Position numbers and translations under genes: made by a program. Shown one piece after another: positions 1 through 1,552 of a stretch of DNA of 1,552 nucleotides. Origin of the DNA: Escherichia coli (lineage in GTDB: Bacteria; Pseudomonadota; Gammaproteobacteria; Enterobacterales; Enterobacteriaceae); NCBI RefSeq assembly GCF_013315695.1, contig NZ_CP054362.1; one strand, given 5' to 3'. The notes beneath the pieces are model-generated. The model was not told where the DNA came from, searched no databases, and saw nothing but the letters and a program-made list of their open reading frames with translations. How positions within the stretch are numbered: position 1 is the stretch's first letter; each line of letters begins with the position of its first letter.

Positions 1-50
1 CCTGTCGCATCCAGGGTGACACAACGTTGTCGCATCCTGGATGCGACAAC
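1..50. repeat. Two tandem ~25-bp imperfect direct repeats (1-25, 26-50); the second unit is a perfect 25-bp palindrome (gttgtcgcatcc-t-ggatgcgacaac). Candidate Rep operator or iterons.
   Basis: Read directly: units 1-25 and 26-50 match at 19 of 25 positions. Arms 26-37 and 39-50 are exact reverse complements. Each unit has a CCWGG (Dcm) site at its centre (11-15 ccagg, 36-40 cctgg). Further GTTG/CAAC-type palindromic motifs lie at 21-30 (acaacgttgt) and 54-66 (caaca-agg-tgttg). The function is inferred from position upstream of the rep-like gene. Confidence 0.55.
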
Positions 51-63
51 ACGCAACAAGGTG

Positions 64-93
64 TTGCACAGATGTGTCATGATGGCTTAGATT
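64..93 (+). promoter_or_regulatory. Putative sigma70 promoter for the rep-like gene: -35 TTGCAC (64-69), 18-bp spacer, -10 TAGATT (88-93)
   Basis: Hexamers chosen by eye; 3/6 and 4/6 matches to consensus, with A2 and T6 of the -10 conserved. An alternative -35 is TTGAAC at 93-98, but it lacks a good -10. Not supported by any transcript data. Confidence 0.3.
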
Positions 94-121
94 TGAACCA
101 ACGTTAGTGCATGGGATTTTT

Positions 122-127
122 AGAGGG
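122..127 (+). promoter_or_regulatory. Shine-Dalgarno sequence (AGAGGG) 8 nt upstream of the ATG at 136
   Basis: Purine-rich GAGGG core with standard spacing to the start codon. Confidence 0.6.
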
Positions 128-135
128 AAAAAATC

Positions 136-612
136 ATGTTTATTGATTCAGAAAAACGACTGAAACAACTTTCAGATGAGGCAAAGAAAAACACCGAGGA
201 TCTCGAAGAAGCAAAGAAGAATTCAAGGTTTACACAGGTATCCCCAAAAGGTTGGGAACGCGTTCGAGAGCTGCTGAAGGATAGCCAAGGCATATCAGCA
301 CTGAAGCTGTACTCATTTTTAGCGGAGCATATCGATCCTACGTGTGGCGCTGTCGTTGCGGATCAGCAATTCCTAGCTGAAAAACTTGGAGTTAGCAGAA
401 GCACAATTATTCGTTGGCTCAATTACTTAGAATCAAAAAATGCATTAGTTAGAATCCCCGTTGCTGGTAAGGTTTGTGCGTATGCCCTCGATCCACATGA
501 AGTCTGGAAGGGATACAACACTACGAAAAACCATGCAGCATTTGTCACTAAAACACTGGTCAACAAAGACGGTGATATTCAGCGCCGAATCATGGCCATG
601 TTTTCAAATTGA
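136..612 (+). CDS. repA: Small winged-helix replication initiator protein (RepA/RepL-like), 158 aa, about 18 kDa
   Basis: Only ORF with a proper RBS and ATG start, ending in TGA at 610-612. Its GC content is clearly lower than the downstream DNA. A helix-turn-helix motif is visible at residues ~77-100 (QQFLAEKLGVSRSTIIRWLNYLES, nt 364-435), followed by a wing-like beta region (VRIPVAGKVCAYALDPHEVWKG). Iteron-like repeats sit directly upstream. The Rep call and the symbol are inferred from architecture and motif resemblance, not from a search. Confidence 0.8.
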   Translation: MFIDSEKRLKQLSDEAKKNTEDLEEAKKNSRFTQVSPKGWERVRELLKDSQGISALKLYSFLAEHIDPTCGAVVADQQFLAEKLGVSRSTIIRWLNYLESKNALVRIPVAGKVCAYALDPHEVWKGYNTTKNHAAFVTKTLVNKDGDIQRRIMAMFSN

Positions 613-948
613 GCCAGCGGCAGGCGGACAATCAGGGGCTACGTGTTAACGTTCTGACCATGATTGTCTATCCTGCATTGCTCTTTTGCCGCCTCAAAAT
701 CCCTTGCGTGTTTTTGCTCCCCGATCTCCAGAACGACCGAGCCGCCACGGTTCCGGCAGCGCCTTGAGCGCAACCGGAAACCGTCTGGGGAGAACCCCAG
801 ACCCCCATCGCTGTAACACCGACGGTCTACGACCACCTACCAACCGAGTGACTGCCTGTACCGTGCAAATGGGCTTTGCAGGGGGCTGGCGCGGTTCCTG
901 GCGACCTGAAAGCCCCTGGCTAGGGGTATCGGCGCGCCTGACCTCCTG

Positions 949-969
949 AAACGCTCTGTAAGCGTTTTT
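949..969 (+). terminator. Hairpin aaacgct-ctgta-agcgttt followed by tt; weak candidate intrinsic terminator or single-strand structural element
   Basis: 7-bp stem (949-955 pairs with 961-967), 5-nt loop, T-run 965-969. The stem is AT-rich and lies ~340 nt downstream of the rep stop, so a terminator role is uncertain. Confidence 0.2.
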
Positions 970-979
970 CGCGCCTTCC

Positions 980-995
980 ATGCCCTGACGGGCAT
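980..995. other. Hairpin atgccc-tgac-gggcat (6-bp stem, 4-nt loop)
   Basis: Exact inverted repeat read from sequence; function unknown. Possibly part of a single-strand initiation or priming signal. Confidence 0.3.
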
Positions 996-1106
996 TTAAA
1001 CCCCGCCTCGTGCGTCTGAGAGCTTCTGAGCGCGTTTGAAGGGCTATCTGACGACTCATCCCCGAAAGAACAACAGCGGAATCACCGACAACATGCGAGA
1101 GGTGGC

Positions 1107-1168
1107 ACCGCTCGCCGCAGCCCCAGCGACCGAACGTTAGTGAGCGAGTGGGCGAGGAAGCGGAAGAG
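1107..1168. other. ColE1/pMB1-like conserved non-coding segment, matching the block just downstream of the ColE1 replication origin; candidate lagging-strand priming (primosome assembly) region
   Basis: accgctcgccgcagcc...gtgagcgag...gcgaggaagcggaagag closely matches the pBR322/pUC backbone sequence as I remember it. No RNA I/RNA II-like sequence precedes it. The priming-site function is an inference. Confidence 0.45.
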
Positions 1169-1204
1169 AACCGGAAACCACATTGAGCACGTACGCACTG
1201 ATAC

Positions 1205-1229
1205 GGGGTGTCGGGGCGAAGCCCTGACC
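1205..1229. repeat. Left arm of a perfect 25-bp inverted repeat (ggggtgtcggggcgaagccctgacc)
   Basis: Exact reverse complement of 1434-1458, separated by 204 bp. Confidence 0.9.
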
Positions 1230-1397
1230 AGATGGCAAACGGAATATCGTCGCGGGTGACGGTATTACATTTGCACATCCTGTCCCGATTTCTGCGGGGG
1301 TTAACGGTGAACGGACGGCAAAAAACGTGCAGGAGCTGTTGAACGTGAAAACCACGAAATCTGGCAAAAATCACGGCTGGCGAGGCTTGCAGAGGAG

Positions 1398-1458
1398 TAA
1401 GCCAGTATACACTCCGCTATCGCTACGTGACTGGGTCAGGGCTTCGCCCCGACACCCC
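1398..1458 (-). other. ColE1/pMB1-type oriT (bom) nick region; predicted nick on the minus strand near 1400-1403 (CTGG/CTTA on that strand)
   Basis: The minus strand reads gggtgtcggggcgaagccctgacccagtcacgtagcgatagcggagtgtatactggctta, nearly identical to the pBR322 bom/nic region as I remember it. Nick position is by analogy with ColE1 relaxase (MbeA) cleavage. No relaxase gene is present in the window. Confidence 0.6.
1434..1458. repeat. Right arm of the perfect 25-bp inverted repeat; this arm belongs to the ColE1-type bom/oriT homology
   Basis: Exact reverse complement of 1205-1229. The sequence corresponds to the bom-proximal pBR322 segment gggtgtcggggcgcagccatgacc with a few substitutions. 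Confidence 0.9.
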
Positions 1459-1460
1459 CA

Positions 1461-1489
1461 AAGGGCGTTGCGTTGCGCGCAACACCCTT
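1461..1489. repeat. Imperfect inverted repeat containing a perfect 12-bp palindrome GTTGCGCGCAAC (1472-1483)
   Basis: The 12-mer is self-complementary. Flanking aaggg (1461-1465) and ccctt (1485-1489) extend the dyad, with a duplicated gttgcg on the left arm. Confidence 0.7.
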
Positions 1490-1490
1490 G

Positions 1491-1552
1491 CCTAGAATAG
1501 ATCTTTTACGCCGATTTGTAAGTTGTTGTTTTTTTAGTGTGTTTTTTGTTTA
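1491..1552. other. AT-rich tract with T-runs; possible DNA unwinding element of the origin if the element is circular and joins to the repeats at 1-66
   Basis: Composition read directly (T7 and T6 runs, gttgttg motif). The origin role is an inference from its position next to the repeats across the putative circular junction. Confidence 0.3.

Follow-up and report, generated by a model that had tools for sequence, protein, structure and literature searches.

Why does a mini-plasmid with a replication protein of its own carry a block of sequence that in ColE1-type plasmids lies just downstream of the origin? The block in question occupies positions 1107–1168 of the window, by which we mean the whole 1552-nt stretch of Escherichia coli DNA analysed here. 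A preliminary description had taken it for a piece of ColE1 backbone that was retained after the ColE1 origin itself had been replaced, perhaps because it serves as a primosome assembly site. The question is therefore in two parts: where the block comes from, and what, if anything, it does.

The window is a complete pKL1-family plasmid

The positions of the features discussed below are collected in Table 1. A megablast search of PLSDB gave dozens of 1552-bp records, pVR50I and pJJ1886_1 among them, that were 100% identical to the window over its full length, with hosts in Escherichia, Klebsiella and Enterobacter. PLSDB types the replicon as Col(MG828) and labels it ‘mobilizable’. Of 5,426 complete E. 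coli genomes, 292 (∼5%) contain a relative, counted as such when it covers 80% or more of the window. The plasmid pKL1 (NC_002145, 1549 bp) is collinear with the window over the entire circle, at 98.2% identity for 1–770 and 90.7% for 773–1552.

The sole annotated gene is repA, which encodes a 158-aa helix-turn-helix protein. The same protein record, WP_000469298.1, is annotated on both pVR50I (an identical record) and pKL1 NC_002145, so that RepA is identical to the RepA of pKL1. As judged from this identity, replication that depends on the Rep protein is supported. Previous work has described pKL1 as ‘selfish’, with repA as its sole cargo (PMC3526173), and has located its oriV on the upstream side of rep, where there are also Rep-binding sites and an IHF box (PMC3832669). 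In another study pJJ1886-1 is given as one of the cryptic plasmids that lack MOB genes, and its Rep is assigned to the HTH_36 superfamily (PMC4270462). Window 613–1110 and 1197–1295 are matched at 100% identity by a record from outside the enteric hosts, NC_004833.1, a 1488-bp sequence under the name Corynebacterium renale. It is a family plasmid filed under a Gram-positive host, which suggests that either the host range is truly broad or the record has been mixed up.

Table 1. Features of the 1552-nt window
Feature	Position	Strand	Description
Whole plasmid	1–1552		1552 bp, complete, circular; pKL1 / Col(MG828) family mini-plasmid
Rep-type-specific control/origin region, second part	1–135	+	Inverted and direct repeats of TGTCGCATCC (3–48), palindrome 12+1+12 (26–50), rep leader
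repA	136–612	+	158-aa winged-HTH replication protein; Pfam HTH_36, E=1.5e-8
GC-rich conserved non-coding segment	613–1106	+	Upstream of the block
ssiA-type primosome assembly site (n′-pas) homolog	1108–1165	+	58-nt imperfect hairpin; ColE1 homology and covariation
Sequence travelling with the block	1169–1201	+	Kept in ColE1-like and RepL plasmids
IncI1 (R64)-type oriT	1202–1291	+	Between block and bom; 92.2% over 90 bp to the sequence directly upstream of nikA in IncI plasmids
ColE1-type bom/oriT	1398–1460	−	Homology to ColE1 (see text); shared 25-nt element at 1434–1458
Rep-type-specific control/origin region, first part	1461–1552	+	GTTGCG/CGCAAC repeats, AT-rich 1495–1552; runs on across the circle junction into 1–135

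The block and bom are homologous to ColE1, and no ColE1 origin accompanies them

When the window was compared with ColE1 600–1900 by blastn, the block gave a match at exactly the positions that had been flagged: window 1107–1168 aligns with ColE1 1308–1367 at 82.3% identity over 62 columns (E=4e-11). The bom region follows, window 1398–1457 aligning with ColE1 1462–1521 at 98.3% over 60 bp (E=9e-26), and a third match of 24 nt runs in the inverted sense, from window 1206–1229 to ColE1 1521–1498. Both main similarities are thus significant, and the order, block and then bom, is the same in the two plasmids, as is the strand. To this extent the preliminary description was right: the downstream block of ColE1 is present, and the bom homology comes after it in the ColE1 arrangement.

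The ColE1 sequence also provides an orientation for the block. RNA I of ColE1 is found by Rfam at 645–749 on the minus strand, hence RNA II and the displaced strand are plus. We take the ColE1 origin to be near 1197, from the ColE1 sequence and the RNA–DNA switch of pBR322, and with that placement the ColE1 block lies ∼110–170 nt downstream of the origin.

The window has no counterpart of that origin. RNA I (RF00106) was absent from the window in the Rfam search even at E≤10, where the ColE1 positive control scored 73.8 bits, and blastn at word size 7 gave no window HSP to ColE1 600–1300, which covers the RNA II/origin homology. Together with the lack of a promoter-like site, these searches rule out an RNA I/RNA II origin in 613–1106, and they bear out the earlier statement that ∼640–1100 has no such sequence. 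The same description had, however, put a protein-dependent rep module at ∼640–1100, and this was mistaken: repA is at 136–612, and 613–1106 is non-coding.

The block is a hairpin whose stems covary

The hairpin formed by the block is closed by a base stem in which CCGCT (1108–1112) pairs with AGCGG (1159–1163); two more stems lie inside it, a middle one that varies and a small one at the apex. The sequences that flank the hairpin, CCGCTCGCCGCA and GAGGAAGCGGAA, are conserved around it across a widespread element family. With 1100–1180 as the query, the block was found in at least 5000 PLSDB records, and among the matches listed the closest copies (98%) were in 3.4-kb Rop/Mbe plasmids rather than in ColE1 itself.

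The folding energy of a single sequence is uninformative here, the 86-nt block folding no better than its shuffles (z = −0.25 for the plus strand and +1.2 for the minus strand), so that covariation across homologs is needed. One genome per species was scanned with the pattern CCGCTCGCCGCA N28–48 GAGGAAGCGGAA, which returned 119 loci comprising 41 distinct variants of 54–72 nt. Stem arms are swapped between variants in ways that keep their complementarity: GCCCCA/TGGGC in the window, GTCGAT/ATCGAC in pKL1, and in other variants CCTGT/ACAGG, CTCAT/ATGAG, GAACGGA/TCCGTTC and GTTTTGAC/GTCAAAAC. An alignment of 26 variants on a 16-pair structure contained six pairs that had changed on both sides, amounting to 34 covarying cells. 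None of 500 shuffles reached the observed cell count or covariation score, a comparison that overstates independence, since the 26 sequences are related; as a control, sliding the partner by 1–3 columns left at most 5 such cells. The clearest covarying pairs are 28–49 (CG in 15 sequences, UA in 11) and 35–42 (GC in 18, AU in 8; n = 26). The outer stem, CCGCT/AGCGG, is held invariant by the scan pattern, and the covariation figures concern the inner stems.

The stem cells that are not standard pairs are mostly tandem G·A/A·G when read on the plus strand (31 cells), equivalent to C·T on the other strand, and there are 6 G·T against 2 A·C. DNA helices can accommodate tandem G·A pairs, and the mismatches are in this respect indirect evidence that it is the plus strand that folds, as expected from ColE1.

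A closer view of how the fold varies comes from L008, a 1549-bp plasmid which has the pKL1 RepA and, in the IncI-type oriT segment, the pKL1 sequence. It differs from the window at 88 positions, and the differences are clustered, with 15 in 1101–1150 (the hairpin) and 24 in 1201–1300 (the IncI-type oriT repeats). The two arms change together between the window and L008 not only in the hairpin but also in the inverted repeat of the IncI-type oriT, which points to selection for the folds combined with an exchange of alleles.

Several observations concern the family as a whole. The scan matches (loci L013–L131) are often on short contigs of Streptomyces, Clostridium, Flagellimonas and assorted MAGs, and several of these non-enteric contigs carry the commonest variants; 23 loci, for example, have the variant of the Shigella Rop plasmid L002. 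Non-enteric loci with the commonest variants are most likely contamination by cloning vectors or enteric plasmids. The replicon signatures found in 20 other block-bearing loci were RNA I (in six) and the repBA pseudoknot (in two), and the Rep-type mini-plasmids had neither. Long variants of 60–72 nt, at L059 6004–6063 and L030 453–524, are on contigs with a repBA pseudoknot (RF01089); in L059 the block lies ∼1.1 kb downstream of the pseudoknot and on the same strand, close to the position expected for the origin in such replicons. The 3373-bp plasmid L007 (NZ_CP093409; locus 1640–2062) combines Rop, MobC and MbeB/D with a 98% copy of the block. RNA I was not found by Rfam in the 2943 bases of L007 searched, and an A-run, GCAAAAAAAAAAACGG, is present ∼30 nt ahead of the block; this plasmid may have a divergent RNA II-type origin, or some other replicon on a ColE1 mob backbone.

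The block travels in a non-coding cassette and beside many replicons

The extent of the unit to which the block belongs can be read from plasmids that share only part of the window. The two mini-plasmids L009 and L010 (1506 and 1509 bp) have another Rep, of 146 aa and with ∼30% identity to the window RepA over the HTH, and different repeats upstream of rep. Window 611–1461 is nevertheless present in L009 at ∼90%, and 611–692 and 745–1461 are present in L010 at ∼96–98%; the intervening segment, 693–744, is missing from L010 and differs in L009. The homology to both plasmids stops at 1461, a junction right after bom, and the region 1–135 is not present in either.

Other plasmids have smaller parts of the window. 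The RepL-type plasmids L011 (20–482) and L012 (2234–2311 plus 1–381) have only 736–1201 in common with it, at 89% in L011, and L007 matches 1106–1196 at 88%. An IncX4 plasmid has 948–1165 in common. In an IncX1 plasmid the match spans 945–1285 apart from the block's core, which is deleted, and there are also three short patches in collinear order within 676–909 (the IncX loci are L005 3001–3205 and L004 2603–3211). In both IncX plasmids the common segment is intergenic, downstream of a RelE/ParE toxin–antitoxin pair, and in IncX4 it is ∼650 bp upstream of the replication-initiator gene. The block is kept, then, in plasmids with three Rep types as well as in IncX4. It lies 250–660 bp upstream of rep on the rep-sense strand at the RepL and IncX4 loci, and ∼500 bp upstream of rep in the circular mini-plasmids.

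On the evidence of these sequence comparisons, the plasmid is a Rep cassette (1461–1552 and 1–612) fused to a non-coding priming-and-transfer cassette of ∼850 bp (613–1460), the roles of the latter being predicted. The block itself is best read as one member of a mobile element class that occurs beside many replicon types. The notion that it is specifically a retained segment of ColE1 backbone does not hold: elements of the same family are found beside RNA I, IncX, RepL and PK-repBA replicons, and a ColE1-specific leftover is thereby ruled out. The proposal of a Rep cassette joined to a ColE1-type transfer and priming cassette survives in part, in that the plasmid does look like a modular fusion with Rep-dependent replication, but the transfer portion also holds an IncI1-type oriT and so is not purely of ColE1 type.

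The GC-rich segment upstream of the block is harder to characterise. It gave no match in Rfam for 613–1106. The unit 736–1201 could be the ‘conserved region’ element of pHW126-like REP modules, or else a component of the origin. Hairpins in 940–1000 (AAACGCT/AGCGTTT and ATGCCC/GGGCAT) were considered, and we make no claim for them, the first having one arm changed without compensation in relatives. Two stretches in 684–717 are complementary to the rep operator/leader region at 43–56 and 109–132, one at 79% across 24 nt and the other at 86% across 14 nt. Both sit within or just before 693–744, the segment noted above as variable between mini-plasmids, and might be an extra Rep site or the target of an antisense interaction. 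A 2495-bp Enterobacter contig, L027, was examined as a link to pIGMS31 and dropped, no complete rep ORF being listed for it.

Two predicted transfer origins face each other

Between the block and bom lies a second, IncI1-type, transfer origin, on which the preliminary description was silent. Its parts are a 25-nt GC-rich hairpin element (1205–1229), the arms of a 17-nt inverted repeat (1235–1251 and 1258–1274) and the nick region ACATCCTGTCCCG (1275–1287); compared with L006, the right arm agrees at 16 of 17 positions and the nick region at 13 of 13. By analogy with R64, the nick is predicted on the plus strand at 1282/1283. In bom, TAAGCCAG at 1398–1405 is the complement of CTGGCTTA, the bom nick sequence, and the predicted nick 5′-CTGG/CTTA-3′ is presumably, as in ColE1, on the minus strand between 1402 and 1401. 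The IncI1-type and ColE1-type oriTs are thus head to head, with their predicted nicks 119 bp apart.

The two origins are tied together by a perfect 25-nt inverted repeat, GGGGTGTCGGGGCGAAGCCCTGACC, with one copy in each oriT, 1205–1229 pairing with 1434–1458. The repeat contains GCGAAGC, which forms a very stable DNA mini-hairpin. The bom copy agrees with the IncI version of the element and not with that of ColE1, from which it has one mismatch. This suggests that the two 25-nt copies have been homogenised with each other.

Among repA and the 226-aa minus-strand ORF, which were scanned for domains, only repA had a match, and no cognate mobilisation gene was found in cis. Any transfer would need a relaxase in trans. 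There is a precedent for this in pEC156, which lacks a relaxase and has two functional oriTs, its R64-like oriT being mobilised by R64drd11 in trans (PMC4743918), and plasmids equipped for transfer with oriTs alone form an established class, pOriT (PMC10123127). The oriT sequence of the pKL1 type best matches another IncI-complex plasmid (92%, beside a mobA/nikA-like gene, L133), and small plasmids seem, from such matches, to carry oriT alleles of different helper plasmids.

A probable role in priming the plus strand

What the block does must be judged from its relatives and its fold. In ColE1, ssiA (n′-pas) is the lagging-strand signal; it becomes single-stranded once Pol I extends the primer, and it recruits PriA (PMC3167613, PMC3640518). 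The idea, already put forward in the preliminary description, that the block may be kept as a primosome assembly site agrees with this literature and with the covariation of the hairpin, and we consider that the block probably functions, for the plus strand, as a primosome assembly site of the PriA type. Its dependence on PriA, the strand used and the timing of use are inferred.

The sequence of events would be as follows. The plus strand becomes single-stranded, the 58-nt sequence then folds as an imperfect hairpin, and the hairpin would be recognised by PriA. Assembly of PriB, DnaT, DnaC–DnaB and primase would follow, and a primer would be made for synthesis of the complementary strand. The plus strand could be exposed in two ways. 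A fork that moves from the Rep-controlled origin in the direction of rep would displace the plus (rep-sense) strand, with the block exposed last. Alternatively, an IncI1 relaxosome would nick the plus strand at 1282/1283 and transfer it, leaving the block near the 3′ end. By either route the block would lie towards the end of the exposed DNA, much as a single-strand origin does. Forks moving only leftward from the origin would leave a plus-strand site unexposed in vegetative replication, and this consideration counts against the proposal. The pHW126-like plasmids, whose Reps are also of the winged-HTH kind, can replicate without their ssi, but copy number then rises and multimers form (bioRxiv 10.1101/2022.12.05.519187); by analogy, we would expect loss of the block to have a similar phenotype.

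The IncX1 relative in which the core of the block is deleted also counts against a function, the block being dispensable at least there. It can be taken, with other observations, to mean that the block is a passive passenger, recombined in along with the neighbouring oriTs from a ColE1-like or IncX plasmid and without a role. The plasmid has its own Rep, with an origin reported upstream of rep; the ssi of pHW126-like plasmids is, as just noted, not essential; and the flanking sequence moves with the block as a unit. However, 58 useless bases should be lost from a 1.5-kb plasmid, and the block is intact in all of the aligned family members, including those with another Rep. Moreover, the changes between the window and pKL1 compensate and keep the stem, as expected if the fold is under selection. 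A passenger without function is, on balance, unlikely.

It is also conceivable, though we regard it as distinctly improbable, that 736–1172 is where the leading strand starts, with a geometry like that of ColE1 in which the primosome site is ∼100 nt downstream and on the displaced strand, and that each Rep acts on it across a few hundred bases, from sites of its own, as at R6K ori alpha. The segment 736–1201 is common to three Rep types and partly to IncX; in every case it precedes rep, and the primosome site forms its right-hand end. From the polarity of DnaB, a plus-strand primosome site would serve only a fork that moves rightward and opens the DNA lying left of the site. Against this, the unit has no RNA I/RNA II or other known origin signature and no promoter-like site was found, the oriV of pKL1 has been placed in the Rep-specific region upstream of rep (PMC3832669), and a unit that is not specific to its Rep would be an unusual origin. 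The stronger form of the idea, with 736–1172 as a portable, Rep-independent initiation unit which pKL1 RepA, the 146-aa Rep, RepL and the IncX initiator would each activate at a distance, has in our estimate little chance of being correct. If it were true, the ‘selfish’ mini-plasmids at ∼5% prevalence would amount to the unit 736–1172 with interchangeable Rep and oriT cassettes.

That the similarity stems not from a signal in single-stranded DNA but from a minus-strand gene (ORF 694–1374, 226 aa) or a structured RNA is hardly credible: the ORF does cover the region, a hypothetical protein is annotated there in some records and the RNA fold of 613–1106 has a z-score of −2.5 (plus strand; −1.4 on the minus strand), but the ORF, which we rejected as a gene, has no Pfam or NCBIfam match, is only 110 aa in pKL1 and overlaps two oriT homologies and the hairpin, no Rfam family matches, and the block varies by paired stem swaps and in length from 54 to 72 nt, which is not codon-like.

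Significance and comparison with known systems

The reading we prefer, of a probable primosome assembly site within a priming-and-transfer cassette, has little bearing on replication biology as such, given that primosome sites of the ssiA type and mosaic small plasmids are already known, as is pKL1, from which the plasmid descends; the plasmid itself has hundreds of database entries. The gain is in annotation. None of the hairpin, the IncI1-type oriT and bom is annotated in the public records examined, and over half of a plasmid annotated with repA only is, by our reading, not junk, being made up of a predicted priming hairpin and two predicted helper-specific transfer origins. Such a cassette may help to explain how plasmids of this kind come to be present at ∼5% among complete E. 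coli genomes. Two by-products are of most use: the signature of flank, hairpin and flank (CCGCTCGCCGCA–hairpin–GAGGAAGCGGAA), which is backed by covariation and could serve to annotate this element class in at least 5000 plasmids, and the unannotated IncI1-type oriT head to head with bom.

The nearest relative of the plasmid as a whole is pKL1, with which it shares an identical RepA and a collinear circle, and from which it differs in having alternative alleles of the hairpin (GCCCCA/TGGGC in place of GTCGAT/ATCGAC) and of the IncI-type oriT repeats. The block resembles the ssiA of ColE1/pMB1 (n′-pas, rriA), a PriA-dependent site of the phiX174 type, in being homologous to it (82% to ColE1, 98% to some Rop/Mbe plasmids), with the same flanks, the same strand relative to bom and a covarying hairpin. 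Unlike ColE1 ssiA, it is not preceded by an RNA II primer or an RNase H/Pol I origin, and its middle stem is a different allele; its left flank, too, bears no relation to the ColE1 origin and has its counterparts in RepL and IncX plasmids.

In its mobility, which is predicted from sequence, the plasmid is like the pOriT class and pEC156, having no mobilisation genes but oriTs for helper plasmids; the R64-like oriT of pEC156 is 84% identical. The pairing of an IncI1-type with a ColE1-type oriT, head to head and with a perfect 25-nt inverted repeat, sets it apart from pEC156.

Two further likenesses are by description. The plasmids pHW126, pIGMS31 and pIGRK are likewise small enterobacterial plasmids with a winged-HTH Rep and a REP module containing a palindromic ssi, although in the present plasmid two oriTs lie between the ssi and the Rep-specific repeats. 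In the Gram-positive pAMbeta1 family, theta replication is Rep-dependent and primed by Pol I, and ssiA is a PriA site downstream of the origin. The present plasmid is similar in that its replication appears to be Rep-dependent and yet a predicted primosome site of the PriA type would be on the displaced strand, whereas pAMbeta1 belongs to Gram-positive hosts and the position of the origin relative to rep may differ.
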